Shown piece by piece: positions 4,851 through 63,420 of a DNA stretch of 64,000 nucleotides. The notes under the pieces were generated by a model. The model was not told the origin of the DNA and did no database searches. It worked only from the letters and a program-made list of their open reading frames with translations. The stretch is taken from NCBI GenBank assembly GCA_036785375.1, contig JAWMAR010000023.1, positions 3,410,001-3,474,000 of the forward strand. The letters are read 5' to 3'. Each line of letters starts with the position of its first letter. Position 1 is the stretch's first letter. A program made the translations under genes and the position numbers. Source of the DNA: Leucoraja ocellata (taxonomy: Eukaryota).

Positions 4851-5056
4851 TAAGGACACAAAGTGCTGGATAACTCGGCGGGTGAACCAGCATGTCTGGA
4901 GAACCTGGGTTGGTTACATTTCGGGTTGGGACCGTTCTTCAGACGAGACCTAAAACATCCAATATCCATGTGGTCCAGGGATCCTATCTGACCTGCTGAG
5001 TTACTCCAGCACTTTGTGTCCTTTTGTGTAAACCAGCACCTGCAGTTCCTTGTTTC
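4851..5056. mobile_element. Hammerhead-bearing element, fold-back (inverted) copy
   Basis: Arms gacacaaagtgctgga.. and ..tccagcactttgtgtc with a degenerate CTGAAGA..GAAA motif on the - strand at ~4913-4944. Confidence 0.75.
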
Positions 5057-6905
5057 AACACAACAATTGAACAAGTTGTTTTCTTGTTTTGCTGAAAATG
5101 ATCGGTAAAAAACAGGCATTTTCTGTTGATTATTTTGTTTCTCTGACTTGGAAACCAGAAGTAGGGTAACATACATCCCACTGCTATAATTAAAATCAGG
5201 TTGTTTTAAAATATTAATGACTGGAGTTTTTGATGGAAACATTTTTTTAATGTTTCAGTGCATATAGATGAGTCATTGAGCAAATATTCATTGAAAATAT
5301 GGACAAGCTAGCATGACTTGTCTAGAGCACATTTCAGAATGAAACAGATGTGCAGTTTTTTTTTTACCCTTTACGGAACAGCGCTAACAGATTTGTTAAA
5401 TTAAGCTGACAGAATAGTTTCCTTTCCCATGAGGACATCTTGGAAGCCCGTACCAGTTACTGCAAGGTTGGGTGGTTTAACCATTCAGATTGTACAGAGG
5501 AATTTAGGAGTTGATATAATAATCTCTAATAAAAGTAAAAATGACCCAGTTAAGATTTGACAGATAAAGCAGGTGATCTAAGCTAAGAAATGCAAGACAT
5601 TGAACAGCTGAGCTATCAAGCACATTTACTCTGTTTGCTTGAATTCCTGGGAGATCAATAAGGGACTGTGTAAACCGATGATTTAAAATTGTTCTTAAAC
5701 CTGTAAAGAATTTCCTTACGGTGTACTGAAGTTGAGTCGAACAATCATTTTTTTTCATAATGTGCTTCTCTCTACATGGCTGAAAGCAATGATTGCATTA
5801 CTACGCTCTGTCACCACCTAAGACTTAGCACCTCCTCCCCAGCTTGTCAGTTTGACTTGCTGCAGTACCAGACACATGAATCTGCCTGTAATGTTCAAAG
5901 CCTTGCCAGTTTTAACGTGGGAGAAGATGGACAAAAATGATGATCTGGCAGAAGAACTGGAGCATGCATAGATAGTATGCTATCATCTGAATGTTTAATT
6001 AATCTTTTTTTAAATATTGAACCAGTAACCAAGTTCTGTGAGAGGAAGCTGGGAGTCCTGTGCTATAGTGCACTGAAATCCCTCGTAGTGTGTGTGACGG
6101 GTTTTACTGGTTCTTGGCCCAGCTGCAAGGGGTGTGGTATCCTCTTTCAGAGAACATAAGCACTTCCTCTGTTCCACCCACTTGGAGAAATAAGTCTGCA
6201 GCAGAGTCTGAAATCTCAGGGAAAAAAATAATTTTCATTCCGACCAAAAGAAGAAATTTGTACTTTTTAATGCCTTTGTTAGAAATTAGTAAAAAGAGGT
6301 GGGATAGGTGGAAGCAACACAATGCAACAGAAAGTGGTGTTTGGGTCAGAAATCCCTACTTCTCCCCATCAATTGAAAACAAAGCCTCTACTGACCATTT
6401 TCCATTGGGGCTCCGCTGATTGCCAAGACATTTTGTTGTTTTTAAAATGGCCTGGCTTTCAGATAACGTTGACAGCCAAAGTTCATGAGCAGTGATTCGA
6501 GCACAATGTTGAATTCTATTTCCCAGCATGACATAATGTTGGCAATCTCTTCTTCAGAATCAAATATATAGTTGAGGGAGTCTCGGTCTGTTTTGTTCTT
6601 GATATTTGGTTGACTGTAATTTGTCTTTCGAGATCCCTTTAATCCCAAGTTTTGTCCATGCTGGTCAATCTTTGATAGGTTTCTGCTGCCAAGCACAGTG
6701 CTGTTACAACCAATTGCTTAATCTCACATTAGTCCCCAACAGGAGCTTCCTCTAAGGGCAGGTGAGACATATTTGCAGACACTTGGAAGAAATTGTGTAA
6801 TGATATATTTTGTTTTATTTATTGAATTTCATAACTAGACTACTTGGACAAACATTACACTTGCTTATACATATTAGTATGTTTATTTACAGATGAGCCC
6901 AAGAC

Positions 6906-7070
6906 TTGGTCATCTGTTGCTGGCTCTGATTTGTTCTGGCCTTTTCCTATCTCCAGTTCCCTCCCCTCTGCTTTCAGTCTGAACAAGGGTTCAGACACAA
7001 AACGTCAACCATCCTTTTTGTCTAGTTGCTGCCTGATCTGCTGAGTTAGTCCAGCACTTTGTGTCCATCT
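6906..7070 (+). mobile_element. Hammerhead-bearing element, degenerate, with TSD
   Basis: ctgaacaagggttcagacacaaaacgtc core, flanked by tgagcccaagac (6894-6905) and tgagccctagac (7071-7082). Confidence 0.75.
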
Positions 7071-8334
7071 TGAGCCCTAGACAACGTAGATGTATGAAGA
7101 CTATGACATACAACACCCTCTCTCCCAATTGTGTTTTAATACAATATGATTTTGTTTGTTCATTAACCTGCCTTTCCCATCCAAGAATTAAGCTGCTGCT
7201 GTAGTGTCAGGCAGACTGTGGTAGTTTTGTTATCATTTACATTAACGTAACGTATCTTCTCATCATTCTCCACAATGTACTCGACGTATTGTCAATACCT
7301 TTGTGCAGGAAACAACTAATAACTCAAACTATCTCTCCAAACATAATACGCCTCTACTCAGATAAATAATTTCAACTAGAACACTGAGCAAATGCCACCA
7401 TTGCTTAAGTTCTTAATGCATGTACAAGTTATCATGCACAAACAGATTAAAATATTAATCCTGTATGATTGTACGTATACACCCAGCTGATAGATGAAAA
7501 AGTGTGCACGCAATAAGTCAGGGGCTGTCAGCCCTAGATGGAATGTATGCATTTTCTGCTGGTATTTGTACAATACAAATATAGATTTGTTATAATGCCA
7601 TTAATGTAGACTTTTTGGGGAATGAACATTCAGAGATTTAATTTGACCAAAGTATTTCCACTGCCAATACACAAATTTATGCTTTTTACATTTCCTAATC
7701 ATGAAAATAAAAAACATGGTATTTAAATTATGATGTACATTTAACTTTCTGAATTTGAACTATGGCTGACTTAATTTTCTCCATTTTAGTATTGAAAGTT
7801 TTAGGACATATCAACATGGAGAATGTTCTGGTATAGGATCCCAGCACATTATCCGGCTCGTTAAACTTGGTGATGTGGCAGTGACTTTCAAGGAGTGGAT
7901 TTAGGTCCATGGTCACCAAATAGTAATGAAAATGTGCTCATCTGCTTTTACAGTGGGATTGAAAACTCACCCATATTTGCATGGGAGAATTTATTATCTC
8001 ATGCCTGAGTCAAGATCATAATTGCTGGCTTGGATTAAGAGGCTTCAAATGGGAAGCCCTGTTACAACAGTTTAAGCAGTACATCCAGCATGAAGAGAAT
8101 TTGGAAACTGTCAAACATGATCATGGCTGTCTGGCTCTATATTTAAACCGCTTGAAAACCCTCCCTGGAACCTCCACTTTAAGTGAAGGAGATAGTCACT
8201 ATTTGAAAGTATGCTGATGCTGGTTTGGTGAGTTTACAGGTCACTGTACTTGGCCAAAACTTTAACAACCAAATTAAAGCCACCTGTACAAGGGAGACTC
8301 CTCTGCCAGGAACAGACCATGGCTTTGTATGTAT

Positions 8335-8590
8335 GTTTAGTTTAGTTTACAGATACAGCATGGAAACAGGCCATTCGGCACACAGAATCCGTACCGACCA
8401 GCAATCACCTTTTCAGTAGTTCTATCCTACACACTAATGACAATTTTCTGGAAGCCAATTCACTCTACAAACCTACACGTCTTTGGAGTAGGGGCGGAAA
8501 CCAGAGCACTCGAAGTAAACCCACGCAATCACTGGGAGAACACTGCACAGTCAGGATTGAACCCAGGTTTCTGGCGCTGTAAGGCAGCAA
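8335..8590 (-). mobile_element. V-SINE (HE1-like)
   Basis: tttag repeats plus gatacagcatggaaacaggcc tail and core. Confidence 0.85.
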
Positions 8591-11259: not shown

Positions 11260-11410
11260 ACAGGAAATTGTTGGAGATACTCTGCAGGTCAGGCAGCAAC
11301 TATTGAAAGTGAAGCAGAATTGGAGTTTCAAGTCCACAGATGTGTCCTGCTGAATATTTTCAGCATTTTCTGGAGTTTGTCCAGACTTTCGGTATTTGCA
11401 GTTCTTTGAT
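11260..11410. mobile_element. Old fold-back relative of the hammerhead-bearing element
   Basis: tgttggagatactctgcaggtcaggcagca ... cctgctgaatattttcagcattttc diverged arms. Confidence 0.45.
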
Positions 11411-12945: not shown

Positions 12946-14769
12946 GACTGAGAGTCCAGAACCTTGCGAATGGTGTCAGGACTGATTTCACAAGAAATTT
13001 CCTAAAGGGTTGTCAATTTATTAAGTTATATACCGCGGAGATCTGTGAATGCTCAGTTATCGACAATGTTGAAGGGAAACCTGATAGATTTTTGGGCACC
13101 AATAGAGTCGGGTATGAGGGCCTGTGGGAGTGGATTTGAAGTAGTGGATCCACTCTGCTACTGGATGGTATCTTTCAAGATGTCTTTCAAGAGAAAAAAT
13201 AAAATATTGTGACGCTCAAAGAGAATTGGGTGTGTTGAATTAACTTCTAATCAGTGCTACTTCTAGATCACTCTGTGTAACTCTTTTGCATCCAGCTCGC
13301 TAATGACTGGTGTCAGCTAACAGTGACTTTTTAAAATTTTAAATATGTTTCATTATCTCAATAATGAGCTTCATTACTATTGAATCGATACAATACGTGT
13401 CAGTCTGCCAATAGGAGAGAAATCACTTTTTTTTTAAAGCCTCAGGTATCTCCCCTTACTCCTTAGAGAGTGAAAACAGTCAAATTACTGCAACACCCAC
13501 CCTTCATAAGGCGTTGATGCGTCTTCAACAGTGGGTACTGCAGAACATAAACTTCCAAGTGTGCAGGTTAAGATTCCTATTACAATGCGGCACTGACTGA
13601 TGTTTAACTTCGCCAACCGAATATGTCATCAGTCTCCCAAAGTGTTGCACCACACAAAACTGTAATTCACTGAGGGGGGGGGGTTCCTTCCTTCTGTCAT
13701 CACTCCAGTTGTGTGGATGAACAGTTTTATCAAATGATTGAAACTATTTTTAACAAGTTATGAACACAGAAGCAGATTTGCCAAATGAAACACTCTTTTC
13801 TTTTCCCCCAAAAGAAAACAGAATGTTTGTTTTTTTCAATATCTTAATTTCTTTAACATGGGAGCAAATAGGTGCAGACAAAACTAATTTTAAATCCTTA
13901 ATTGGACACTATTAATAGTGGGTCTGTGCAGACATGACATGTGGATGTTCAGTCATCCTGCAGTGCGTTCCATACACCCCAGGCAATGAATCAGTCACTT
14001 CCCATAGAAAAGACAATCTGTCTTCTCATGTCTCCTCCCACCTTTCTCTTTTTTTGCCACTGCTGCTTACAGACAGGGAAATCATTTTTCCTGATGAGAC
14101 GCAGCAATCTGCTTGGATAGTAGGCTAATGCTGTATACAGCTGGTGCTGTCTTGTCAAATAAAATTAACTCCAGTCTGCATCGAGGTCTGTGGAAATTCT
14201 CCCTCTCCCCCCCCCCCCCCCCCCCTTTTTTTAAATCCCTGTTCCCATGATTTTTCCAGGCTCCTTGTAGAATGCAGTTTTATTGGTGTAGATATTCATT
14301 ATTTATGCATAGTCCTGGGCGAAATGGAATCAGGCGATTGATCCTGGGGGCATCACATCTTCTCCCTGCCGTTAACACATGCATGATCCAGTGTACCTAA
14401 CAGTGGATGCTGTTGGAGGGGTTCAGTTGTGTAATATGGCATGGAATGATTTACCATCAGCCTTTATCAAGAATATAACCTAGAAATCAGTACACGGAGT
14501 CTGTGTTTTTCAGAGCGACAATTTTCAGCATCAGTTCAGTTTAGCATCTAACTGGTGTGGGTCATACTGGAGGTGTTTTGGGGGTGAGATCTCTATAGAT
14601 GCAGGATTACAGTGGACCCAAGTCCTTGCGCTACTGGTGTTTTTCTGACATCATTATTGGCCAATACCCATTTCTGCTTAAACTGACACAAGCTGGAGCA
14701 GAAAGCTCCATGTTACATCTGCTGCACAATGGTCTCAGAAGAACAAGGAGCACGCTGTTGCATTTAAAG

Positions 14770-14912
14770 GGGCACAAAATGCTGGAGTAACTCAGCGGGT
14801 CAGGCAGCATCTCTGGAGAAAAGATTCCTTTTTTCCAGAGATGATGCCTGGCTCGCTGAGTTACTCTAGTGTCTATCTTTGGTGTAAACCAACATCTGCA
14901 GTTCCTTCCTAC
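14770..14912. mobile_element. Fold-back copy of the hammerhead-bearing element (ribozyme core deleted)
   Basis: 44-nt inverted arms (14780-14823 and 14828-14871) plus the element's 3' end (aaccaacatctgcagttcctt). Confidence 0.8.
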
Positions 14913-15603
14913 TCTTTCCTGACACTGGGAGACCAGACTGGACTGTGTCAGCTGTGCCTGTACACTGCACAAACTTGGCATATGTGATGCAATTTGCTTT
15001 GTAACATTCAACATCAGTTTTGTCTTCCCTGCAGGGTTGGACTATTGAATGGTGCAAAACTGCCTTCACTTAGTGAGGTGGATTAATCCAATTCATGTTG
15101 TATTAGTAAATGCGATGTTTAGAAAATAAAAGAGTGTATGGTCTCATGCGGCATTCTATGAAATGCAGTGATGCAAGCAAAAAGATAAATAAAAGGCACT
15201 CTGGCAGGAGATACCCCATTTTACGGATTATCGTTTTGGAAAATAAGTTACAATTCATAAAATGCTGCAAATAAAATACAGATTTGTTCTCTCTGATGTA
15301 GTTTATGCTATACCATAAGTGGCACAAGTGAGTGGATTGATTTTGTCAACTGAATATTGGTGTAGTGTCCATAACCTGTTCCTATGTGCCAAACCATTCT
15401 AACATGTCAGAGCCATCACCAAGTTTGCTCGAACAAATTCTATCATACTGTGCTTGAGTAATGAGTCGGTGAGATGTTTTTATTCCCTCTGCACCAACAT
15501 TTGGATGGGCTTGTTCAGTTGATGAAGGGGGTTCCTGTGGAAACTGGGCCTGGCTTACAGCAGCTCCAGTAAACAGTTGGATCACATTGCTTCCTCAACC
15601 AGG

Positions 15604-17957: not shown

Positions 17958-18092
17958 AAGAAGGAACTGCAGATGCTGGAAGATCGAAGGGACACAAAAA
18001 TGCTGGAGAAACTCAGCGGGCGCAGCAGCATCTATGGAGCGAAGGAAATAGGTGACGTTTCGGGCCGAAACCCTTCTTCAGACTGATCAAAG
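17958..18092 (-). mobile_element. Hammerhead-bearing element, well preserved, with 12-bp TSD
   Basis: Flanked by the direct repeat cctgctgtgttc (17946-17957 and 18093-18104). Confidence 0.85.
18051..18084 (-). ncRNA. Minimal type-I hammerhead ribozyme motif
   Basis: - strand: agu CUGAAGA A GGGU-UUCG-GCCC GAAAC GUC acc. Intact CUGANGA, stem II, GAAA and GUC. Confidence 0.7.
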
Positions 18093-19358: not shown

Positions 19359-19914
19359 AAAATGTTGGAAGTTACAGAACAGCCATTACCTTTATTAAAA
19401 AAAAAGACAAAGTGCTGGAATAGCTTAGCGGGTCTGACTTAGCAGTTCCTTGTTCTTTGCTCCTAGCCCCTGCCTTTACCACAGTGAGTCCAAGCTCGGC
19501 ACAATAAACAATTGCACTTGTTCCTCGGCACAATGTGGGTAATTTTCCCACTGTATTGAAAGCTGTGTTGCAGTGGGAGTGTCAGCATTTGGCTTTATCC
19601 AGTGGGGAAGTGGTATCGGGTGAGCAAGCATGTCTTGCCGTTGGAGGCTGCGCTGTGGAATTTCCAGTGGGAGGGGTGGTGCGTGCGCGGGGATTCACAC
19701 ACATCAGGGTACACACAGAATAGTTTCAGATGACCTTGTGTTAACACCTGGATTTGAGGTGGGAGACCTGCCCCAAGTGCTTTTGTGTGAGGAAGAACAT
19801 AATGCAAGGTTCAACTGAAACGGGACACTAGGGTGGAAAACGTATCTGTGCTGAACAGCCACTTTAACCTGCAGACACAAGAAACTGCAGCTGCGTGAAC
19901 CTTGAGGGGGGGGA

Positions 19915-20055
19915 AATGTACTGGAGGAACACAGCAGGTCAGGCTGCATCTGTAGAGGAAATGGACAGACGATTTTCCAGATTGAAAAAAAGGATCCCGA
20001 CCCGAATCATCGTCCATCCATTCCCTCCACAGTTACTACCTGACCCATTGAGTTT
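19915..20055. mobile_element. Degenerate fold-back hammerhead-type element
   Basis: ctggaggaacacagcaggtcagg ... cctgacccattgagtt arms around aggatcccgacccgaa. Confidence 0.6.
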
Positions 20056-21439
20056 AATGGCCCTTCAGCACATTGTTTTGGCCACTTAACCTGATGAACT
20101 AAATACCCTTTGCTACCAGAAATTCTAAGTAATTTTAAGCCTACCATGCAGTGCCTTTCATGCTCCAAAGTGCAGATGTATTTTTAAATATGGCTTTGCT
20201 ATGAGCTTGTTATATTTCATTTGATACCAACTCAATCTGGATTCTTTCTTGAAGACGGTTGTGGATTTGAAACGAATGAAGCCAAGGCTAAGAAAAAAAA
20301 AATACGATTTGACACCTGCCTGTTCAGACATCCTGACACTTTTACATGAGAACCACTTCATATTGACATGAAAGTGGCAGCAGCATCTCAGCAGGCTTAC
20401 AGCTCCAGAGTCTCTGTTTGCAAAGCAGTTAAGTTAACAATCATGGGATGGGGCTGATGCATGATAGAGGGTGGATTTGGGGTGCATTATTTTCTAATTA
20501 AATATCCCAGAAACTAATTATCAGATTACTGAACCATGCTGTTGACAGTTGCACGCATTTGATGTAATTATTTTCCTGTTGACTGAAGCAGCCAAGCATC
20601 ACTTAGCCGTTAAGTACGCTTCAACCTTTGTGAACATTTGCAGTGTAATCATTTCAGAAGATGTAATTTTATTAAAGTTCTCATCAGAAGCTTTTGGGAT
20701 ATAGTCTCGCCATCTCCTTTTCATCTCAGCATCAAGTTCTCCCTGTCCTTGCATTCCATTGTTTGGTGCTTCTGGATTTTCTTTTTACTCACAACTCACG
20801 GCAATCATTTTTGCATGCTTACGTTATTTTATTTTCATAAGCCGTTCTAGCAAGAGATCAGTGGCTTCTGCATCATTGCAGTAGTATTACGGCCAGTAAT
20901 GCTATGGGGTAAATGAGCAGATGGTCGGTATGGACAAGTTGGGCAGAATGGTCTGTTTTCATGCTGTATAGCTCTGTGACTCTATGTCAGGCTGAGGGAT
21001 AAATGTACACCAGGACACTGAGAGAATGTCATTGCGAAGGTTGTGCATTTTACCGAAAGATGAACTGCCTGAAGTAAGTGTCCAGGGCTTCTCATGCCTT
21101 TGTCTCTAAAAGAAGCTTCCATGTGTTGAGGTTTACTCTGCCCGAGTGGCATGTATTCCTGGATGGAAAGCAAAGAAGTGGAGCAGAGAAAAATTCTATT
21201 TTATCATAGCGTGGTGAGCATGGCGAGTGCCTGCATTGGGAGCCAGCGTGGATTTGGACACACTGACAACCGGAAGGGGAACAGTAGTCTCCTCGCTGAA
21301 GACAGGAAGTCCCTGATTTTTCTTCTCCAAACATTTGTCGTGCAGTTTATTTGGTGAATCATTCCAAAAAGGTGCAATTGAATTTCTACGCTATTGCTTT
21401 CAAATTCATCTTTCATTAAGAGAGAAAAAATGCTACTTT

Positions 21440-21660: not shown

Positions 21661-22864
21661 TTCTTATCTGCAATGACTTTTTCAAAGTGGAAGGAGCACC
21701 TTGCCTTGGACAGTTAGCCGTCTTGCAGTCAACTGGTTAGCCATGGAGTGGACATGGAGAATGACTTCTGGGCCTAAGCTACCAGAAACCCACTGATATC
21801 TGAGAGAATGTTTCAGCTCCTCCAGAAAGGATAGAAACAGCAAAGGCAGTCCATTAGATAAGATTGCTGTACATGGTTGAAATGCAGGCACATGGTAGCA
21901 TTGTTTAAACTTTCCAGGGAAAAGGCTGCAATCACAGAGTAAATGGCACAGTCTTTGCAAAGGTTTATTTTACCTATGTTTCAGTTTCATACTGAATTTT
22001 ACAAAGCCTACTTGAGTTGTACATGACAAATCCCAGTTCCTTGGCCCATTTGGGTCTGAATACATGAAGCTTATTCTCTTGTGTATGGTGCTCGTTCCAA
22101 TTTAGGGAAGGCAATTGTGTTATAATATAACAAAGTTGACCCAGAGGAACAGTGGGTGACAGACAATGCTCCCAGAGGTTTTAAGGTGGAAACAGCAGCC
22201 TCAGTAACATGAGATTGGTCTTGTGCCAGCCCTGTCATCTTGGTGCAGGAAGGAAGAGCCAAGCAGTGCTATCAGCACTTTAATGCTGTAATCCTTGCCG
22301 TGTTGGCAAACAGCCAGGGGTTGAGACTAGGCGAAACCAGGCCTGCGAATTCTATAGAGAAAGCTCTTTTTCCCCTCTGCAGTTTTACTTGGCAGCCCTT
22401 GTGTGGGAACACTACAAAGCGGAGGCTGATAAAGAGGTGGGACCTGGCACAGCTCTCCGAATCTGAACTGTCTCAAAGCTGCAGCTGCAAAGACTGTGCC
22501 ATTTACTCTGCGATTAAAGTACACAGCTCACAAAGCCAATGTTTCAGCGGGGCCTGGAACAAGCACAAAACGTTGATATGTACTTTCAGAGGTTAAAATG
22601 CTTGGAAATCACAGGTTTGGCAAAGTAAGGACTGACAACTGTTTACTTATTTGAAAAATAATAGCACTTTGCCAAAATGCATGGAGATATAGCAACCTTG
22701 GATGTAGCACTTCCACTAATATCTTCCCAGTAACATATTGGAAGTATTTTAACCTAATCTGATCAGTGGACAGATTGGGTTGAAAGCTGATTATATGCAT
22801 GCATAGATGGGTGGGGCGGGGTGGGATCACGTTGAAGGTGCTGGAAATGGCTATTTCACCCCTC

Positions 22865-23162
22865 TCCCCTTCTGTGCCCATGCTCCTATATTCCTTCCAA
22901 TGGCTTCATTTTGTGCCTCCTCGATCTTTATCTCACATCATTTGTCTTTTCATCTCTGGCCTTTGTCGAACCATCTGCCAGTCAAAAAAGAAACCCTCAT
23001 CTGGATCCACCAATCACTGGCTAGACGTCCCTCCCTCGTCTCTTGTCCAGGTTTCTCACCCTTACTACAATCAATTTGAAGAAGGGTCCCAACCCGAAAC
23101 ATCGCCTGTCCATGTGCTCGAGATGCTTCGGAACCCACCGAGTTACTCCAGCACTTTGTCCT
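22865..23162 (+). mobile_element. Longer hammerhead-bearing element (pyrimidine-rich leader plus degenerate motif)
   Basis: ttgaagaagggtcccaacccgaaacatc at ~23076-23103, followed by the family 3' part. The 5' boundary is uncertain. Confidence 0.65.
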
Positions 23163-23894
23163 TGTTCCTCAGGAGCGTCATGGTTGAAATCACCTCATTC
23201 ATTCACTGCTCCGCCCATTGTCCTGTGTGTCCAAGATGGCTGCAACCATACACCATCAAAGACCCACTGATAATGTTGGAAATATCAACAACAATGATTC
23301 GCAGCTCTCGTATTCAGTTCATTTTGAGTCAAGACTGTAACAAAGTCTGGCACTAAGCTGCACTGTTCAAATCTGTCTTGAGCACTGGTGGGCTTGCCAT
23401 TGTTGAGGGGATGTCTGTACAATTGATGAATTGCCACCACTGATAACTCTTCTGGTGCCGTTGCTGAGGATCGGGAAAGAAAAAATGGAAAGCAATCATT
23501 TGAGATTTGCTAATTCTTTACCAGTGGAATGCGAATGAAGCATGCAGTGTTTCGTCTCCTGAGGAATTTGCTTAGTTAGAGACTTGGCTTATTTTAAAAG
23601 AAATAAAGAAACCATTAGTTAACTCTCTAATCAGCAAGTTTAAAAAAATGAGATTTTCATACTGTTTTAGTTTAATTGTGTTGTGCAGTCCAGATGTGTG
23701 GTAAGTGCAGTGAGAACAGGTATGAATGTATAATATTTCTTTTGCTCTTGTACATTGTTAAACGTTTGAAATATGAGCTGGAGTGGAGCGCAGCCATGTC
23801 CAGACTTGCCTCCATCTTCATCTACTGAGATGCAGACAATCTGTGGGCTGAGTTTCCTATCTACCAGATGCAGTGTACTTCTGCAGACAACATT

Positions 23895-24238: not shown

Positions 24239-25775
24239 AATCGTTCTCAGCAGATCTTCCAATCCTTTATCCTTGGAGCAATGTCCCTGGTTTATCCCCA
24301 CCCCACTGTGCCCCTCCAGTATCCCCTCTGATTTAGTGAGCATCCCTTTCAGATGTTTGCACATTTTATGCAATAAAGGTTTGGCTTCACTTTTTTCCAT
24401 CGTTTTAGATTCCTGATATTATTGAACTTGTGTCTCTCCGATGTAACAAATAGTTTTTTTTTCCATGGTAGCTCCAGGTTTGCAATGGGTGAAGAAATAA
24501 TGGGAGAGTAGGCAAAGAAAAGCATTGTGCATCTTTTCCACAAATAACTTCCCAAATCAAATCCAATTCCGACAGTGCCACTTCCTCCTCTGGGGACAGT
24601 AAATGGTTGGCTCTGTTCCATCTGCACAGACATGCTTGCACGAAACCCCCTTTGCATGCTCAATCAAATGAAGTATCAATGCCTTAGACAAATCACACAA
24701 AATAGCACAGGTCGGGCCACTTATTACAGATTCAGTATTTTTTTTAAACAACGTAATGTTTTACCGGGTGTGAGAATTACTGTGCATTTTAACAACTATT
24801 TATTGGCCATTTACTTTATCTTTAAGCATTCCACATTTTGTAACAAAATAAATTAAACGCAGATTGATATGCAGATCTACATGCTTTTAATACTGTTTTC
24901 TCTGAATATAAACAATAATGTTTCCGGGTCAAAAAGGCCCCCACGATACATTTTCTTTCTTTGCTGCCAAAAGATTAGCTGTAATAAATACTTTGACTTG
25001 GCATGATAGAGGAAGTAGGGTCTCATTTTTCCTGTTTGTAGATTTTATAACACTAACCAGGTGCCTGCAGTCTGGGTTCAGAAACAGAACGGTATTGATT
25101 ATGTCTGGCTGGATTATTGTGGAGCCCTTCTGTCTTGCTGAACATGAGCAAAGTGGTCTCATGCACAGCAATCTGGACAGTTGTTCCAGTTTGAAGGCAG
25201 GCTCTATAGGGAGACAGAGCAAGCATGGAGCTGACAGCCCTTGCATGTTTCCTTGTGTTCTGAAGTATTTCCCAGTTTTATAAATTCAAATTAAAAAAAA
25301 AAGAAGCAAATACTAGGATTCTAAAAATGAGGAAGTATGAAAAAACAGCCAAACATTTGCCTTTGTTTCTGCTTAAAATTATGACGTGTCTGAGTCACAG
25401 GCTGACAACTGTCCCCCACATGGTCTCTCTCTTCATATAGTGTTCCGCAGTGGGTTCTGTCGCTATCTATATCAGTTTTTGAACAACGTCCACAAGATCA
25501 CATTTTGCCCCAGCAGGAAGTCCTGGCCTGGCCTCCAGACCCTGCATGCTTCACATGATCAGCTCCAGCTCTAGGTTTGGAGCCTGCTGGCAATTCCCAT
25601 GTGTTCCTAGAGGCCTTGGGGGTAGTAGTGGTGGGGGGGGGGGGGGGGGGGGGCAGGAATGCTGCTGCAGATTCCTTAAAGTCAGCCTGGCTCAGCGTCT
25701 CTGTGATTTCTACAGCAGTTGCTTGCTAAACGCCTGGTCTCAAAGGGGAATGAACTGCACTATTATTGTTGGAGA

Positions 25776-25863
25776 TGGACACAAATTGCTGGAGTAATTC
25801 AGCGGGTCAGGCAGCATCTCTGGAGAACATGGATAGGTGACGTTTCGGGTTGGAGCCCTTCAT
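25776..25863 (-). mobile_element. Hammerhead-bearing element, truncated inside the motif
   Basis: - strand gaagggctccaacccgaaacgtcacc; CTGA is missing. Confidence 0.75.
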
Positions 25864-27016
25864 TTATTATTGGATGTTTGGTGGGCATGCTCCCAATAAT
25901 GGTATAAAATCTGCAACAAGGGAGCCTCCATCTTATTGAATCATTTGGAAGAGTGGTATTGTGGCACTGAAGCAAGTCACCAGCATGAAAATTAACTCTT
26001 GAAACATTTGTTCCTATAATGGTGGTGTTCCTTTAAAATAATCAATACATCACATGATCTAGAGCATTATTGGTGAATGATTAGAGTTACCCTGCAACAG
26101 CATTGAAACATGAGTAAATGTTAATTCATCCCAGTAGTTTATTGGACTGTTACATCTACCCACAAAACACCTCATATGAAGCTTCTAAATTAATCAGCTG
26201 CCCGGAGAGTCTGTTCAGCCCATCTTGACTTAAGATAGCTTTTAAGGCCTTTTTTACATTTTGTTTGATATAATTATTTCCAGTAATAAATGTTAAAACT
26301 TAAGAACATGGAAGCTCACCTGCCATCCTTCCTAATCAGTCCTGCCAGCTGGCTCCCTGGACACACAAAAGCAAGCAAGTGTGAACAATGCAGGTCAGGG
26401 AACAGCTACAGATGCAGGCTTCGTCTTGTTAAACTTTAGGCTCGTCTGATCCCATTATAAAGGGTAACATCAAAACAGGAGAGTGCACAGACAGTCGCCA
26501 AAATCCCCAAAGGGCCTAGAAAGCTGCAAGACCTGAGCTTTTTTTCCAAGAACATTTATTACTTATGAAACCTTCCAAGCTCAGAGACTGCGGATGAAGC
26601 CAGACAGCCAATTACTGTATTAGTATTTCAAAGCCTCTTTAGCTGTCTGTAGAAATCACCATCACACTCCCCTCGTAGCACATGTTGTTGCTGCAAAGCT
26701 TCGGGCCATCCTGTTAGTAGAAGCATGCCTCTGCGATCATTCCCAGACTCACATGCTGAGCGCCCTTGAATCTTTTCCTTTCTGAAGCACGAGCCACAGG
26801 CCTAGAAATTGAATTATTTCTTTAGCTTTATGCAATTGAAAATTGTGCTTTTGTTTTCTGGAGTGAAATGCAATAATGGCCATTTTTGTTTGATTTCAAC
26901 CGAGTTGCCCTTGTACCAAAACATGGGCCAGGGGCATGGGATGGTACAGTTGCCGATGTGACCCATTACAGGAGATGAGACCATGTTGTCTTGGGAGCAC
27001 CCATTGTTATGCAGCA

Positions 27017-28878: not shown

Positions 28879-29619
28879 AGGCTTAACATTACCATTTGGT
28901 AAATTTCCCACCCCACGATGGGTCAACGGGAGAGTTTAACTCAGTTTGATGAATGATGATTTATTTTAAGTTTCTGAAAGATTTAAATATACTGCTAGCC
29001 CAATGATAAAAACCAACGTTAATGCCACAGTTGGTTGTACATGAGCACAACGCCATGGACTGCGTGTTACAGCTGAATAAGATTGTGGACTGACTGGCGG
29101 GTGGTTCCATCAACCACCTGCCAGCTCCCACCTCAGCCCACCCTATCAACCCCCACCTCTTCACTCTCAGCCCTAATGCCGGCTCTTGACCCAAAACATC
29201 AACGTCTTCTGACCCACTGAGTTCTTCAGCACTCTGTTTTTGCTCCAGATTCCAGCTCCAGATGCCAGTCTCTTCTGCCTCCATGTTTGTGGACTTGGTA
29301 CTTTAAATTCACTCTTTGTTGAAATATAGAATTGAGAGCTGTCAAAGAAACCAAATGCAACTAAATTGTTGTGAAAATCAGCAGGAAGGTGAAATTAGGT
29401 GTTCACTAATTGGAACAGTTTGTACCAAAAATGTGGCTCAATGTCAAATGCATGAAGCATTTACTTTTGTGTGGTTGCACCCATTGCCTCAGACGTTATG
29501 ACCTCCTGTTGACTTGGTTCGACTTCCTTCCTACTGTCGTCTCTGCTTGTTTTTTGTATGACTCACGCTCAGAGACCAGTTTGTCTGAACAGCTAGTCCT
29601 TGAAGTCTAAGAGTGGTAA

Positions 29620-31786: not shown

Positions 31787-31894
31787 TATCTGAAGCAAGG
31801 TCTGAAGAAGGGTCTCGACCCAAAACGTCACCCATTCCTTCTCTCCAGAGTTGCTGCCTGTCCTGCTGAGTTACTCCAGCATTTTGTGTCTACC
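31787..31894 (+). mobile_element. Hammerhead-bearing element with 14-bp TSD; core G12 mutated
   Basis: ggt-CTGAAGA-A-GGGT-CTCG-ACCC-aAAACGTC-acc, flanked by taatggggatgcat (31773-31786) and taatgggaatgcat (31895-31908). Confidence 0.85.
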
Positions 31895-41594: not shown

Positions 41595-41611
41595 AAATAA
41601 TATATTTTTCT

Positions 41612-41788
41612 CAGAAACAAAGAAATGCATGTGCTGGTTAATATGCAAAAGGACACAAAGTGCTGGAACAATTCAGCAGGTCAGGCAGTATCTCTGGAGA
41701 GAAGGATCCCAACCCGAATCTCCTCGTATCCGTGTTCTGCTCAGATGCTGCCTGATCCGCTGAGTTACTCCAGCATCTTGTGTCTTCT
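41612..41788. mobile_element. Fold-back hammerhead-type element
   Basis: gacacaaagtgctgga.. and ..ctccagcatcttgtgtc arms with a partial core gaaggatcccaacccgaa. Confidence 0.7.
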
Positions 41789-42229
41789 TTTCCTCCTAAG
41801 CTTCAGGCCTGGAATTTCCATTCAGTTGAATGGGATCCTTGGCCTAGAATCAGGGAGGTAGACTCCGCAGCGTAATGCTACCAATCCATATCAGGCCTCC
41901 CTACAGCGCTGGCTCCATGGACAACCTGAGGTCTCCGTGCGGCAGGACTGACTGCTGGGGATGTCTGAATATCATCGGCACCAGCGACAACACCTTGTCG
42001 TGGAATGTCAGCCCATTCCCTGAGCTTTGTAGGCTTTGGGTCCCATTGAGCCAAGTGCAGGGAATTACAGATAAAAAATGGCAATATAAGGTTGGGGACT
42101 TAAAACAGTTGCTGTTCTTATGTCCAAGAATACCATCTGACCTACTGAAACACTGGACTTCGTGCCTCCTTTTGAGACCCACGCACCACAATATCCCACT
42201 ATCGTTCCCATCTATATCAAGTGCATTCA

Positions 42230-44757: not shown

Positions 44758-45016
44758 TGTAAAAAGGAACTGCAGATGCTGTATATACCGAAGACAGACA
44801 CAAAGTGCTGGAGTAACTCAGTGGGTCAAACAGCATCTCTGGAGATAGACACAGAGTGCTGGAGTAACTCAGTGGGTCAGGCAGCATCTCTGGAGAAAAA
44901 GGATGGGTGAGGTTTCGGGTCGGGTCTGAAGAAGGGTCCCGACCTGAAACGTCGCCTCTCCTTTTACGCCAGATATGCTGTCTGTCCCGCTGAGTTACTC
45001 CAGCACTTTGTGTCTA
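44758..45016. mobile_element. Fold-back hammerhead-bearing element with a tandem duplication in the left arm
   Basis: Two ~49-bp tandem copies of agacaca(a/g)agtgctggagtaactcagtgggtca.., an inversion at ~44921, then a + strand copy. Confidence 0.85.
44922..44957 (+). ncRNA. Minimal type-I hammerhead ribozyme motif (sense to SKI)
   Basis: GGGU CUGAAGA A GGGU-CCCG-ACCU GAAAC GUC GCCU. Stem I GGGU/GCCU, stem II and the core are intact. Confidence 0.7.
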
Positions 45017-45170
45017 TCATCCAACACTTTGGCAGTTTTAAGGTGAAAAGTCCGAACATTAAAAGTACAAAAAGACTCAATTTGTGTAGGGGAGGTAAGA
45101 TTTGATTGTATTTTGAGGATGGATTTGAATTCTTGTCTGTTCTGAATAATGTTGTGCTCTCTCTCCATAG

Positions 45171-47662: not shown

Positions 47663-47702
<40 letters not shown>

Positions 47703-49712: not shown

Positions 49713-49749
49713 TTTACAAATTGTTCGGCGTCTTTAAAATTCTACTTAA

Positions 49750-50076
<327 letters not shown>

Positions 50077-51763: not shown

Positions 51764-51893
51764 GTGTGTAGGAAGGAACTGTAGATGCTGGTTTAAACCA
51801 AAGATAGACACAAAAAGCTGGAGTGACTCAGCGGGACTGGCAGCATCTCTGGAGAGAAGCAATGGGTGACGTTACGGGTCAGGACCATTCTTG
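51764..51893 (-). mobile_element. Hammerhead-bearing element (degenerate core)
   Basis: Reverse complement of the 53161-53290 family sequence. Confidence 0.8.
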
Positions 51894-52159
51894 CGATGGT
51901 GACATTGTTTCTAATGTGACATTTTCACAGAGTTTTAGCTAGTGAAACAATCAAATGACATTGTGTGGTGTCTTTAGGTGTAAAATATGTTGAAACCACC
52001 TTCACAGCTGTGTGAAACTTTTTACAATAGAATCACCATTCAAAACCACCCTCTACTCAATGGACACAACGTGCTGAAGTAACTCAGCAGGGCAGCACCT
52101 CGGAGAAAATGGATAGGATAGGTGATGTTAACGTTTTACTGAAAGGGAGATGCTTGTAT

Positions 52160-52392: not shown

Positions 52393-53160
52393 ACGTGGGT
52401 GGGGTTATTGTTTTTTTGGCTGTTGAAGCAACGGTGGCTACAAAGCGAGGAGTTGGAGGGAGGGCAGCATGTCGATAGGGAGAAGGGATGCATGGCTTGT
52501 CTACTAACTGCTGCATGCTTCCTAAGAGCTGTTCACAGAGCAGTGGCAGCCTGCTTTCTCTGGTTTGGGTGGGTAATGATGTGTGCTCCAAATGAATGGG
52601 GAAATAATAATAAAGCAAAATTAGGAGAGAGGTGGAGAGAAGAAATATTCCAGTGGTGACTTCCCTGACATTATCTGCACGTGCCAGCAACACTTACGGT
52701 TTTCTGCCACCTCTTCATAGTACAATTTCCACCTATTTCTGCCACGTGTTGCATTGGCTGCTTTCTTTAATTAAGATGTAATTGTCAGAATTGCAATGCT
52801 CGAGTGCTCAGGCATAAACCTGACCTCTAGTTATAGCTGAGCTGTGCTGAGGATTGTTCATTATACTCCACTAGTATTCTCAGTTGAAGCCAATTACACC
52901 TCTCTGACAAATAAATTATCTTCTGTGAGAGGGAAAACTTGGTAAATATAGCAGGTGAAGAGGGGGTGGCAAAACAGCTAACAAGAGTCCAAAGACGACT
53001 TAAGCTGAAGCTGTTAACTCTGCTGGGACGAGTATGTCGGAATGAATTTGGTGCACTTTAATTTTTCATCAGCCTCATCTCCTTTATTTCCTCTTCACAT
53101 TTGTGAAAATAGTACAATTTCCTACACTGGGAAAGTTATTTTCCTCTCTGCTGACTTTTA

Positions 53161-53292
53161 TTCTGAAGAAGGGTCTCAACCCGAAACGTCACCCATTCTT
53201 TCTCTCCAGAGATGCTGCCTGTCCCGCTGAGTTACTCCAGCATTTTGTGTCTATCTTTGGTGTAAACCAGCATCTGCAGAACCTTCCGACAC
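53161..53292 (+). mobile_element. Hammerhead-bearing element, intact core, sense to SKI intron 6
   Basis: CTGAAGA-A-GGGT-CTCA-ACCC-GAAACGTC at 53163-53190, then the family 3' part ending catctgcagaaccttcc. Confidence 0.85.
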
Positions 53293-54127
53293 TCTTAAGT
53301 TATTTCAAATGTTGAAATAACCTTGTGAACGCCAAGACAAGCAAAATCTATGGCACCTCTAGAACATATTCATTCCTTTTCAATTAAATGCTTGCTAAAA
53401 TATTATCAGTTTTGAACCTCAAAAATACAAATGTGTGTATACTTATCTGTGTACACCTGATTAATGTGATTATGGCCCTTCAGTATGAATCATCTGTCAG
53501 GGACATTATTGCTCAGAATTTCTAAAATAAAATTAATAAGCGGAGCACCTTGAACTCATGTTCATCCTAGCAGCGTATCATGCCTTGGAGTATACCTACA
53601 TTACATTGCAGTACTTTTATTCATCAAATTATAATTATATTTGTACTAAACATAAGTCTAAGCCTTCATTTCCACAATAAGGTTGTTCAGAATTTCACCA
53701 AGTAAAATAAATAAGAACATTTCTGGAAACATTCTGTGGGTCAGAAAGCATCTCTGGAGAGAGAAACAGAGTAAAGTTGATGATTTTTTATCGAGACTAT
53801 ATTACTGCAATTACTCCCCACAGTACCACTGAGATACACCAGCCCTGGGTTAAGTGATTTCAAATCCAGTATTGTGGAATTAATTAGCTAATAATATTAC
53901 AGTTAGAGAAACAGGAACAAAAGTCTGGAAGGCCTATCCATGTTCTCCTGAGATACTGCCTGACCCACTGAGCCACTCCAGCACTCTGTGTCTTCTGATG
54001 GTTAGAGAAACTTTGGGGAAGAGTGAAACCATCAATGGCTAACAGTTAATTCATACATAATTTGCGATGTCTACATCCTTTCAGGATGCAAAAGCCTGTA
54101 CACCTGTGGCTGAAATAAGTTAAAATT

Positions 54128-59934: not shown

Positions 59935-60002
59935 ATGGGTCCCGACTAGAAACGTCACTTATCCATGTTCTTCATAGATGCTGCTTGACTCGCTGAGTTA
60001 CT
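59935..60002 (+). mobile_element. Hammerhead-type element fragment
   Basis: gggtcccgactagaaacgtcacttatccatgttc..gctgagttac. Confidence 0.65.
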
Positions 60003-60589
60003 TTTGAGTACAATTTAATACTGACCCAAGTTGTACACGGCTGGATTCCAGCTTAAACACCATAGCCCAGGGAGAACTAGAATTAGAATTGGTTTCATTC
60101 TCTCCACCCAAATGATACTGGAACTGATGAGAGGATATTGGATGCTGGCCGATCTAACATTGGATCCTTTGTTTGTGTGTGTTGACAGCCATTGCCGGCT
60201 CCTTTGCCAACTGCACCTTAGAGGGGAAAAGCTTATCACTGATTCTGCAATGTTTGAGTTTAGTTTATTGTCACATGTACTGAGGTATAGTGAAAAGCAT
60301 TTGTTGCATACTAGCCAGTCAGTGGAAAGACAATACATGATTACAATCGAGCCATTCACCGTGTGGATGTCGTGGAAAAAGTGACTATGGAAAAGTGAGA
60401 GTCCTGGATTCCAATGCTCTGATGAAGCATGAGTCTGGAAGGCTGAAACAATCAATTTTATTCTGTGCAAAAAAATCAATTGCTGGAAGAACTCAGCGGG
60501 TCAGGTAGACTCAGCGGGTCAGGTAGAACAATGATATTCTTACTTGCTGCAACACAACAATATGCAAACAGTATGATATGACAAACGAG

Positions 60590-60779: not shown

Positions 60780-61440
60780 AAACAGTGCAATAATAATAAT
60801 AATAGTCTATTGTAGTTCAGAGTCTATATGAGGTTGTGGTGTTTAATAGCCTGATGGCTGTAGGGAAGAAGCTGTTCCTGAACCTGGACATTACAGTTTT
60901 CAGGCTCTTGTACCTTCTTCCCGATGGCAGTGGTGAAATGAGTGTGATGCCAGAATGGTGTGGGTCTCTGATGATGTTGTCTGTCTTTTTGAGGCAGCGA
61001 CTCCGATAAATTCCTGTGATGGAGGGGAGATCAGAGCTGGTGAGGGACTGGGCCATGTTCACAAGTTTCTGCAGTCTTTTTCGCTCCCGAACCAGACAAT
61101 GATGCAACCGGTCAAAATGCTCTCTACTGTGGACCTGTAGAAGTTCAAGAGAATCCTCTTTGACATACCGAATCTCTGTAATCTTCTCAGGAAGTAGAGG
61201 CGCTGATGTGCTTTCCTTATAATTGCATCAGTGTGCTGGGTCCAGGAAAGATGTTCGGAAATGTGCACGCCCAGGAATTTGAAGTTTCTCTCTCCACCAT
61301 CGTCCCATTGATATAAACAGGATTGTGGGTCCTTCATCTTCCAAAGTCCACAATTGGTTCTTGGTTTTAATGATATTGAGAGCCAGGTTGTTGTGTGCTG
61401 GCACCATTTGGTCAATCGGTTGATCTCACTTCTATACTCT
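60780..61440 (-). mobile_element. Rex1/Babar-type LINE 3' part
   Basis: FKFLGVHISEHLSWTQHTDAIIRKAHQRLYFLRRL..FYRSTVESILTGCIIVWFG and PLPSGRRYKSL...RFRNSFFPTAIRLLN. Confidence 0.88.
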
Positions 61441-62431
61441 AATAATAATAATAATAATAATAATACATTTTATTTGTGGGCGCCTTTCAAAAGTCTCAAG
61501 GACACCTTACAGAAATTAACAAGAGTAATAAAACATATAATCAGAAAAAAAAAATAATAAAGACATCACCAATACACAAATTAAAGACAGAATTCGATCC
61601 AAAGACAAGAAATCAAAAACACAATGTGAAGAGAGAGCAGTGGCAGCCAAACCGCGCCAGCGTCCACTCTCCCTTCCGACAGCCATCTTGGACACAAACT
61701 AAAATATTCACTCACACAAAAATCATCCCCCCCACAGTGGTTACCACTGTGGGGGAAGGCACAATGTCCAGTCCCCATCCCCAGTTCTCCCAAAGTCAGG
61801 CCTATTGAGGCCTCCGCTATTGCCTCTACGGAGGCCCAATGTTCCTGGCCGTTCTGGCCGGGTGCTGTTGCCCCGGCGTCGGGAGAGTCCTCTCCAGCGG
61901 CTGGGCCACCTGGAACGGCCGCTTCCTAACTGGGGACCACGGCTTCCGAAGCCGACAAGGCCGCGCCGGTTTGAAGCTCCCAGGCTCCCGATGTTAAAGT
62001 CGGCGCCGCCCGCTCCGCTCCGCAGACCCGCAGCCCGGAGGTGTTGATCTCGCCGGTCACAGCTCACCGGAGCTCCAGCGCGTCGATCCAGCGCGGCGAC
62101 CCAGGCAAGGCATCGCCCGCTCCGCTCCGCGATAGCGCTCCAGCGCTGTGCCGCCACCGAAGCCGAGGTGCTGGGCGGTCCCCGCCAGGAAACGGCGCTC
62201 CACGCCCGCAGGTAGGCCACGAGGACGGGTCAACGGGGCAGCCCAGAGAAAAAGCTGCCTCACCGACCAGGTAGGGACCTAGAAATATTATTACCCCCTT
62301 CCCCCCCCCCCACATTGAAACGTCTATTTCTCCAACAAACAAAGTACAGGACTCACTAAAACTACAAAAAAAAAGTGAATTAAACGGACGGCTGCTGGTT
62401 AGCAGCCGTTCGCCAAGATGGCTCCTCCCCC
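61441..62431 (-). mobile_element. ~1 kb CpG-rich non-coding retroposon with an L2-type (TAT)n tail, nested in Rex1
   Basis: The 3' tail ttgaaaggcgcccacaaataaaatg(tat)n matches 30402-30449. It interrupts the Rex1 reading frame between ..TDGDE and EYRSEI. Confidence 0.8.
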
Positions 62432-62542
62432 ACTTTGGCTCATCGCCATCTGTAATTCATCCCACAACGGTGCTGTCGTCGACAAACTAGACGATGGAGT
62501 TCGCACTGTCTGGCTACACAGTCATGAGTATAGAGTGAGTAG
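62432..62542 (-). mobile_element. Rex1/Babar LINE continuation (RT catalytic region)
   Basis: - strand YSLYTHDCVAR..FVDDSTVVG*ITDGDE (degenerate FADD motif). Confidence 0.8.
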
Positions 62543-62690
62543 GACAGGCAACATTTCGGATTGGGACCCTTCTACTTGTGACCTAAAACATCACATGTCC
62601 ATACCCTCCACAGATGCTGTCTGACCTGTGGAGTTCCTCCAGCATTTTGTCTTTTGCTGAAGATTGCAGCATCTGCAGTCTCCTGTGTCC
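62543..62690. mobile_element. Degenerate fold-back hammerhead-type element
   Basis: acatttcggattgggacccttct .. gacctaaaacatcac .. cagcatctgcagt. Confidence 0.6.
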
Positions 62691-63324
62691 CCAAACTTTA
62701 CACAATAACTGTCAGACAAAGCATTCTTTGTTTAATGGCCTTGGCATTTCTTTACAAGGAAGTAAAACTGCTCCTTCATTCCAGTCCACGTAGAAATTTT
62801 GACCACCATTCCGTGTTTGTGGGCATAATTCTAAGCTAAGGTCTTCCCAGGGCTGAGTTTGCAGTGTTAACTGATGAAATTTACTTGCACAAATATCTCC
62901 AGGTTGGCCTAATTAGTTGGAATCCCAGAGGAGCTTGTCGGCATATCGGGGAAGTTTGCTTCTGCTCCTGGTTGTCTGTGGTGCAACAGTCTAGTTGCTC
63001 ACCAAGCAACATCACTCCTTTAAAAAGGATTTGAAATTCTCTTGGGGGCAGAGATTAATATTACTTGCGGGTTTTAAATGAAAGGCCCCTCGAAAAGAAT
63101 GTCACAAGGTCCCAAAGGCCTGCACAGCTGCTGAGGTATTTTCAAAATGTAAGCACTGCTAGAGGCAGGTGGCGACCCTTGGTATTTTGCTGGAACACCA
63201 GTCGGGTCTCCAAGCAGACAGGGGCTTGTGCACACAATCTTGGGCCTTGGAGTCAGGATGGTGCCTTAGCCACTGATGATCCTGTTTCCACAACAGGAAC
63301 AGCCATTGGCGATCGTTCCCCTCC

Positions 63325-63420
63325 TCTCACAGTCCTGATGGGGAGTCTCAACCCAAAATATCGATTTACCCCTTTTGCCTCCACAGATCCTGCCTGACCG
63401 ACTGAGTTGTTCTCACCTTC
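63325..63420 (+). mobile_element. Old hammerhead-type element
   Basis: ctgatggggagtctcaacccaaaatatcga..cctgaccgactgagtt. Confidence 0.5.

Follow-up and report, generated by a model that had tools for sequence, protein, structure and literature searches.

The 64-kb window analysed here (the whole 64,000-nt stretch of skate DNA) is densely populated by a repeat of ~130 nt, the arm, which occurs as 30 arms at 21 loci and makes up about 5% of the window, a density of 328 loci per Mb. We identified these copies by a profile search of the window that returned 32 matches; the 30 with E<=0.01 were grouped as 21 loci, and the ends of both arms and loci were set by manual curation. In 10 shuffled windows the best match to this profile was no better than E=0.15. 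The loci comprise 8 inverted pairs and 13 single-arm loci, and the copies are of mixed ages. The original prediction had listed 19 positions, all of which (19/19) fall on copies of the arm repeat; however, it did not recognize 8 of the 21 loci as inverted pairs, and it missed the loci at 11265-11408 and 60478-60526 and the arm at 53721-53763. Its motif pattern for the family is found at seven places with up to three mismatches and at none in 100 shuffles, but is exact in only one copy. A protein search with an arm reading frame yielded 45 matches, and the nine that are named are all skate gene models, which agrees with the cartilaginous-fish host that had been proposed. A text search of the literature on skates retrieved no description of the family.

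Among the inverted pairs, the head-to-head locus A (4849..5065, from the profile search) joins a minus arm (4852-4943) that lacks a tail and starts at the core to a tailed plus arm (4947-5056) that starts in the stem II loop. The plus arm is also the tailed one in an old head-to-head pair recovered by the profile search (locus C, 11265..11408), in a near-perfect hairpin pair whose arms are without hammerhead and start at about position 35-40 (locus D, 14768..14915), and in a head-to-head pair with a short minus arm (locus T, 62541..62690). The minus arm carries the tail in an older head-to-head pair (locus G, 19872..20083) and in another that directly follows a SINE tail (locus L, 41612..41795). 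Locus M (44758..45025) consists of two minus arms in partial tandem and one plus arm; the latter holds an intact motif (44926-44953), and the tail is confined to the left outer end of the locus. At locus Q (53721..53996) a minus and a plus arm, both without tail, lie head-to-head 170 bp apart and may be two separate insertions.

The best copy in the window is the tailed single arm of locus P (53142..53296, plus strand), with an intact motif at 53163-53190 and a 20-bp pyrimidine-rich upstream part. Two further tailed solo arms lie on the minus strand, one with an intact minimal hammerhead at 18054-18081 (locus E, 17958..18092) and one with a decayed core (locus N, 51765..51895). Solo arms without tail are found on the plus strand at loci B (6905..7070), H (22860..23169) and K (31787..31894, with one substitution in the core), and, truncated, on the minus strand at locus O (52058..52129). 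Locus J (29092..29286, plus) is an old solo arm with a decayed tail and a C-rich upstream part, and the 3' end of the solo arm of locus I (25769..25864, minus) is ambiguous between an 8-bp duplication and a decayed tail. The others are a short 3' fragment (locus F, 19405..19438, minus; profile E=2.5e-6), an arm truncated at both ends (locus R, 59935..60002, plus), a fragment with an internal 18-bp duplication adjoining an assembly gap (locus S, 60478..60526, minus), and an older variant with a pyrimidine tract and AG ahead of its core (locus U, 63320..63412, plus). The last may span 63280-63430, provided that the 10-bp repeat on its flanks represents a target duplication.

Several loci are bordered by putative target duplications of 9-14 bp that are unrelated to one another in sequence. 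A narrow test found significant duplications at 3 of the 21 loci, namely 12 bp at E (17946, 18093; p=0.001), 14 bp with one mismatch at K (31773, 31895; p=0.002) and 9 bp at P (53133, 53297; p=0.023); a fourth match, at locus S, is its internal repeat. Candidate duplications are present at B (12 bp with one mismatch; 6894, 7071; p=0.098), G (at least 8 bp; 19864, 20086; p=0.08), J (9 bp; 29083, 29287; p=0.098), I and U, and insertion flanks are 64% AT as against 57.5%. Two copies continue upstream of the arm into sequence common to outside copies: locus B for 73 bp, ending in a pyrimidine tract and AG immediately before the core, and locus H for about 210 bp of pyrimidine-rich sequence. These continuations mark the 130-nt arm as a truncated end belonging to a longer sequence, and the non-autonomous element of the original prediction, as a self-contained unit, is only a candidate. 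Within the window the upstream parts of B, H, J, P and U show no significant mutual similarity; as they differ between copies, they do not define a single short unit.

The geometry of the copies is strongly constrained. All eight inverted pairs are head-to-head (p=0.008), and outside sequences that hold both arms are in minus-then-plus order in 25 of 27 cases and in the opposite order in two. A tail of 30-40 bp, found on 11 of the 30 arms, is present on exactly one end in 7/7 contiguous pairs (p 0.003-0.008), or in 7/8 when locus Q is added (p 0.013-0.035). Counted from C3, the arm 3' end falls at 92-100 or at 124-134 nt, giving two discrete ends about 32-40 nt apart; of 71 outside matches, 32 terminate at profile positions 29-34, 39 at positions 36-42 and none at 35. 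Arm 5' ends accumulate at the ribozyme and not at its cut site. Of the 30 arms, one starts at the cut site and 20 run across it, a pattern that uncut templates would produce (PMC11167929). No pair has two equivalent outer ends, and the centre differs from locus to locus; the divergence of the two arms of a pair is correlated (rho 0.71, p 0.047, n=8), and diagnostic variants common to both of its arms are few (0.030 vs 0.023 per site). A consensus fold of nine tailed arms gave only one 4-bp hairpin without two-sided change, and thus shows no conserved initiation hairpin.

The ribozyme motif combines CUGANGAH...GAAA, the G10.1-C11.1 pair, a palindromic 15.2-16.2, a UH cut site and an extra base after A9, with only two bases between GAAA and UH in intact motifs. 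Its original assignment as a minimal type I hammerhead of the Penelope-like element (PLE) type fits Fig. S3 of PMC4209133, in which both the consensus and individual rows match the motif. The full descriptor is matched by 3 of the 30 arms (18081-, 44926+ and 53163+), against a shuffle mean of 0.03 per window when the palindrome is included; the remaining 27 have lost the full motif or never received it. Helix I in the intact motifs is 1 bp (P), 2 bp (E) or 4 bp (M, where the junction supplies part of it); in the covariation analysis of the copies, 60.7% of helix I cells are paired. Identity to the consensus is 148/165 in the core, 121/140 in stem II, 1324/1596 in the body and 50/70 in the stem II loop. 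Thus, of the earlier description of a variable loop on a preserved stem, the greater variation of the loop stands, but the stem shows no two-sided change among 14 copies, which for neutrally decaying copies of one family is a weak test. The whole hammerhead structure did not exceed the shuffled control (297/500), nor did the covariation of stem II and helix I exceed shuffles. The Rfam scan that had been proposed as a check gave nine weak matches over the whole window, all under the gathering score and none a hammerhead, and RNAfold returned no active fold for monomers or the homodimer. A covariance model of the core added nothing, because 14 of its 16 matches are its own training copies. We infer that the ribozyme role belonged to the source element and not to most copies, which after insertion decayed neutrally.

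A search for a coding partner found no Pfam match to RT or GIY-YIG domains in 89 stop-free frames (87 of at least 95 aa and two shorter) or in nine read-through frames taken at 39901-40922 and from the sequence preceding H and J; truncated copies would not carry an ORF for these domains. Taking the arm as the N-terminus of a PLE protein, three protein searches with two arm frames retrieved no RT or GIY-YIG protein, and in one of them all 71 matches were 239 aa or shorter. In P, K and M one frame, placed like the start codon of the anole PLE, still crosses the arm without a stop. Elsewhere in the window, a candidate endonuclease remnant near 40300 and a 175-aa frame (39955-40479, minus) found no support. 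ARAGORN detected no tRNA in the window, as the lack of a tRNA head noted earlier would have it. A tRNA-derived SINE or a LINE 3' tail was rejected on this result and on the arm and SINE profiles, which match separate places save for abutting flanks.

The minimal hammerhead, the one-tail head-to-head pairs and the putative target duplications correspond to published PLE signatures, which supports the proposed Penelope derivation. Minimal hammerheads of PLEs (PMC4209133) have the same CUGANGAH core, G10.1-C11.1 and palindromic 15.2-16.2 without helix III, are mostly solo motifs from truncated PLEs, and also form opposite-strand pairs 100-700 bp apart; they number about 4,000 in coelacanth and 9,000 in Xenopus, and Fig. 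S3 of that study has no chondrichthyan row. Relative to them, the skate helices are at the short end of the published range, with 1-3 bp in helix I and 4 bp in helix II, which would gain a fifth pair by further closing of the loop. The skate copies would also be locally much denser, provided that the window is typical. Penelope/Poseidon elements of Adineta vaga (PMC3846280) likewise show an inverted truncated pLTR and a 31-bp tail on one end, and have an 8-10 bp duplication that parallels the putative ones in skate; head-to-head is their most frequent pLTR layout, a general scheme of which is given in PMC8557442. Solo pLTRs and a 30-40 bp tail on one end are further likenesses to this architecture (PMC3846280, PMC8557442). 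Unlike those pLTRs, the skate insertions retain just the terminal 70-300 bp, which hold no ORF, and the hammerhead is the usual end point of both arms. The Poseidon element PAc of Anolis carolinensis (PMC11167929) resembles the skate family in that two initiation sites follow its hammerhead at a distance of about 90-130 nt; the two also have in common an AC-rich end (by eye, CCUUC followed by an AC-rich run in both), AT-rich targets and uncut RNA as template. However, PAc has its start codon where stem II begins, a place at which most skate arms have AAG, and the searches above linked no protein partner to the skate family.

Together, these sequence features suggest that the loci are very probably 5'-truncated, often 5'-inverted pLTRs of one or more endonuclease-positive skate PLE families. 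As described in the literature, the PLE protein nicks AT-rich DNA on both strands, the main template is uncut RNA (PMC11167929), and reverse transcription can begin at two alternative sites inside the RNA, both a short way downstream of the hammerhead, which makes the tail optional. Each skate locus would then be one insertion, whose reverse transcription set out from one of these sites and in most cases ran no further than the hammerhead or its vicinity. Priming of both target strands, or a template switch, would bring two cDNAs together at their far ends, and this meeting would produce the minus-then-plus polarity with one tail, after which the copies would decay neutrally. A bolder version, which we consider unlikely, is that the hammerhead would serve mainly as a docking and stopping point of the insertion complex and not as a cutter: palindrome-paired uncut RNAs would feed a dimeric PLE protein priming both strands, one per initiation site, and both cDNAs would end at the ribozyme to give head-to-head pairs with exactly one tail.

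The nature of the source RNA bears on a sub-case of the PLE explanation, favoured by the original prediction, in which most copies would stem from a dedicated short non-autonomous derivative of a few hundred bases, lacking an ORF and mobilised in trans. We regard this as a genuine possibility, if well short of an even chance: coding sequence is not reached at any locus, upstream parts extending for about 210 bp at most, neither tested frame runs into a long protein, and the density is high; moreover, such derivatives exist (PMC8557442; bioRxiv 10.64898/2026.07.22.740005). However, the dissimilar upstream parts of B, H, J, P and U and the open frame in P, K and M argue against it, and autonomous PLEs that are heavily truncated at the 5' end look no different (PMC4209133). 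Animal non-LTR retrozymes (PMC7229834; bioRxiv 10.64898/2026.07.22.740005) are likewise non-coding, bear a type I hammerhead and are related to PLE pLTRs, and are reported in one chondrichthyan genome with a mean consensus of 363 bp. As tandem units cut by their hammerheads, circularised and reinserted via circular RNA, they were originally defined by tandem arrays, canonical hammerheads and circular RNAs, although the 2026 preprint (bioRxiv 10.64898/2026.07.22.740005) accepts minimal motifs too. The skate copies are dispersed, solo or inverted, with a minimal motif; the unit forms no tandem arrays in the window, where only partial duplications of 51 bp and 18 bp occur, a single arm begins at the cut site, and the inverted pairs and tail point to PLE insertion. 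A retrozyme origin is accordingly very unlikely, and the label retrozyme-like is not supported by comparison with the canonical tandem retrozymes of PMC7229834.

Whether the motif is coincidental, or catalytically dead even in the source element, is a separate matter. The lack of covariation and of an Rfam match, a helix I that spans 1-2 bp in E and P, the best of the solo copies, the RNAfold results and the failure of 8 of 9 tested Xenopus dimers to cleave (bioRxiv 10.64898/2026.07.22.740005) speak for this, but the core, extra base, G10.1-C11.1 and palindrome stand in the right order at the PLE position at a low chance rate, published rows include a 2-bp helix I (PMC4209133), and the anole PLE hammerhead cleaves only with protein (PMC11167929); we judge it quite unlikely. 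A MITE whose terminal inverted repeats by chance hold a hammerhead-like string is extremely improbable: eight loci do resemble inverted-repeat elements of 140-280 bp, and an abundance of elements annotated as TcMar has been reported for skates (PMC12361510), but a single arm makes up 13 of the 21 loci, among which E, K and P have duplications of their own, the pairs have non-equivalent outer ends and variable centres, and the duplications are of variable length and unrelated sequence.

PLE-derived pLTRs thus remain our preferred reading, and the class is a known one, truncated and opposite-strand minimal hammerheads of PLE ends having been reported in 2014 (PMC4209133). Its potential importance in this family lies in how abundant the copies are and how they are arranged. 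PMC8557442 and PMC11167929 still describe as unclear what the PLE hammerhead does and how the inverted ends and tail arise; with roughly 330 loci per Mb, a constant polarity, a single tail in each pair and arm 5' ends clustering at the ribozyme, the family provides a very large natural data set on these questions. The repeat contaminates skate gene models, nine named predicted proteins containing it, and its hairpin-like loci are prone to being misfiled as MITEs or microRNAs. If the window is typical, a skate genome would hold several hundred thousand such fossils, with intact motifs on the order of 100,000, far denser than the coelacanth or Xenopus counts, and the docking and stopping mechanism would be testable from sequence alone. 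The back-to-back layout of the copies records how such elements insert.

We found seven places in the window that fit the pattern of the original prediction, which had proposed a dense family of short retroelements bearing a hammerhead ribozyme, at three or fewer mismatches, against none in 100 shuffles. An iterated profile of the ~130-nt repeat unit (the arm) returned 32 matches, 30 of them at E≤0.01, which group into 21 loci; ten shuffled windows gave a best E of 0.15. All 19 copy sites listed originally are among these matches. By hand-set bounds the loci span 3,211 bp (5.0% of the window, 328 loci per Mb), and 2,636 bp lie under the profile matches. The copies are 61–94% identical to the consensus, and are therefore of mixed, mostly considerable, age. 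Scaled from this single 64-kb window, a 2.2-Gb skate assembly would hold ~7e5 loci and 1e5 intact motifs.

In its 5' part the arm has CUGAAGA-A, then a 4-bp stem enclosing a 4-nt loop, and finally GAAACGUC. As had been claimed, this agrees with the minimal hammerhead consensus of Penelope-like elements (PLEs) in PMC4209133; the agreement extends to G10.1-C11.1, the palindrome and the additional base that follows A9. With 30 arms in 21 loci, the repeat is real and was rightly recognised as PLE-type. The alignment of minimal hammerheads in that paper contains no chondrichthyan rows. A descriptor search requiring the palindrome recovered the complete motif in three of the 30 arms (shuffle mean 0.03), namely in loci E (17958..18092, minus strand) and P (53142..53296, plus strand) and in the plus arm of locus M (44758..45025), where the motif lies at 44926-44953. 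The expected conservation of the core above background proved to be a slight excess (148/165 identities to consensus vs 1324/1596 in the body), with the loop lower (50/70). Among the arm copies a covariation check found no two-sided changes in stem II, the structure score of the motif was equalled or exceeded in 297 of 500 shuffles, RNAfold did not return the active hammerhead fold, and the Rfam comparison proposed originally gave no match for the motif. Helix I is 1–2 bp in the best solo copies. Work by Lunse et al. from 2017 reportedly deals with dimer cleavage by minimal hammerheads. Low dimer cleavage is reported for such minimal motifs in PMC4209133. The covariation, fold, Rfam and helix I results count against a functional reading. 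Given that a 2-bp helix I occurs among the published hammerhead rows, and that the hammerhead of the anole PLE needs protein in order to cleave (PMC11167929), they would still be compatible with ribozyme activity in the source element.

The arms are arranged in a layout absent from the original prediction: 13 loci are solo arms and the other eight inverted pairs, of which seven are contiguous and the eighth (locus Q, 53721..53996) has a 170-bp spacer. This spacer (53764-53932) is weakly palindromic in its own right. In all eight pairs the minus arm comes first and the hammerhead sides face inward (p=0.008). Arms end 3' at one of two places, 92–100 or 124–134 nt from C3, the longer end (the tail) being present in 11 of the 30 (locus I is ambiguous). 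Exactly one outer end is tailed in 7/7 contiguous pairs (p 0.003–0.008), or in 7/8 pairs with locus Q counted (p 0.013–0.035). Divergence is correlated between the arms of a pair (rho 0.71, p 0.047, n=8), and few diagnostic variants are common to both. The junction is of one and the same type in four of the seven contiguous pairs (4943/4947, 19986/19985, 44924/44925 and 62573/62579): one arm starts from the core (positions 1–7) and the tailed side from the stem II loop (15–18). This could reflect a composite master copy or a point at which switching recurs.

Significant target duplications flank three of the 21 loci: E (12 bp), K (14 bp; 31787..31894, plus strand) and P (9 bp). Candidates were seen at B (6905..7070, plus strand), G, I and J (p 0.08–0.10) and at U (63320..63412, plus strand; p 0.03 in a wide test); a supposed fourth at 60478..60526 (minus strand) is actually an internal repeat. 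Flanks of the loci are 64% AT vs 57.5% for the window, a weak control. No more than a few tens of bases separate each of the loci at 41612-41795 and 52058-52129 (the latter on the minus strand) from an AT-rich SINE tail, possibly an effect of AT-rich target choice.

By hand curation, 17/30 arms begin at most 20 nt from the first core base, ten begin 21–60 nt in and three further upstream; locus U would be a fourth upstream starter if its flanking repeat is real. The cut site is spanned by 20/30 arms and is the exact start of one. A constant-hazard truncation model fits these starts poorly (p=5e-5), this null being crude and upstream ends uncertain for solos without duplications. For the 15 arms in contiguous pairs the partner sets the limit, and none of these arms extends appreciably upstream of the core. 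Directly 5' of the core, B and U carry a pyrimidine tract and AG, which we liken to the end of the intron of a Drosophila virilis element, located at the corresponding place (PMC4209133).

For comparison with outside sequences, the arm was translated in two frames and searched against proteins. The first searches gave 45 matches, and all nine named ones are skate gene models (seven Leucoraja erinacea, two Rhinoraja longicauda; P0003, P0007, P0010, P0022, P0023, P0025, P0032, P0044 and P0045), in which no RT or GIY-YIG domains were found; their repeat pieces represent either exonisation or annotation error. A further search gave 71 matches, every one ≤239 aa; these end at profile positions 29–34 (32) or 36–42 (39) and never at 35, consistent with the two arm 3' ends. 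Both antisense and sense arms occur in 27 of 105 distinct proteins, 25 antisense-first and two in reverse order. The upstream extension of locus H (22860..23169, plus strand) has matches in P0071 and P0021, and that of B in P0083, with no such matches in a reversed control. The arm is therefore the terminal part of longer repeats, of which there are at least two kinds, and most copies are truncated. One frame is open across the whole arm at 53163-53294, 31802-31891 and 44926-45021 (all plus strand), in a position corresponding to where the ORF of the anole PLE begins; the searches with the translated arm found no long protein beginning with this frame.

The loci behave like a set of truncated PLE terminal repeats (pLTRs), and very probably constitute one. 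PMC3846280 describes inverted truncated pLTRs with a 31-bp tail at one end, 8–10-bp duplications and head-to-head junctions as the commonest, and PMC8557442 gives the general form of this layout. In PMC11167929, cutting and extension by the PLE protein are shown for both strands, uncut RNA is the preferred template, and two internal initiation sites define the tail, one of them 111–118 nt into an ORF beginning at stem II; the spacing from motif to 3' ends in the skate arms resembles that of these sites. Each locus would be a single insertion, begun at either of two sites and mostly stopping near the hammerhead; pairs would arise where both target strands were primed or where the template was switched. 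Alternatively, pairs may form by self-priming on an antisense template, as PMC3846280 proposes. More speculatively, the pair geometry suggests a step in which two RNAs are paired through the palindrome. A dedicated non-autonomous element is a possible, if less favoured, source of the copies. The leaning toward retrozymes had to be abandoned, as neither tandem arrays nor the canonical motif were found in the window; the arm loci also fail MITE and SINE tests.

PMC4209133 had already described solo motifs derived from truncated PLEs, as well as pairs lying on opposite strands. The preprint bioRxiv 10.64898/2026.07.22.740005 reports retrozymes in one chondrichthyan, and its families may overlap with the skate arm family. 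No description of the latter was found in the literature searched, and the word Penelope is missing from the main text of two skate genome papers.

A second repeat family of ~320 bp has a head resembling a tRNA and ends in a short simple repeat. At E≤0.001 it is represented by 28 complete or fragmentary copies, including profile matches at 41300-41599 (plus), 371-673 (minus) and 33153-33420 (minus). We take it to be of HE1/V-SINE type, presumably resembling the human MER6 entry, a likeness that, speculatively, could inflate 'TcMar' counts in skate annotations. Decayed LINE-like coding fragments, assumed to be of CR1/L2 type, lie at 29604-30325 (plus), 46886-47335 (minus) and 60820-61469 (minus); the last matches Pfam ALKBH8_N (E=3.9e-15), presumably as a LINE-derived domain. 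A stop-free frame of 175 codons (39955-40479, minus), for which no match was found, adjoins a 400-bp C-rich tract (40470-40870, plus). Finally, coding exons on the plus strand at 45106-45585, 45960-46325, 49750-50076 and 55166-55402 have Atlas leads to 'Ski-like protein' and, marginally lower, 'Ski oncogene', both good yet short of high confidence, and we take them to resemble the SKI proto-oncogene. If these exons are SKI, many arm loci would lie within introns, and RNA hairpins would form from the inverted pairs in the pre-mRNA.
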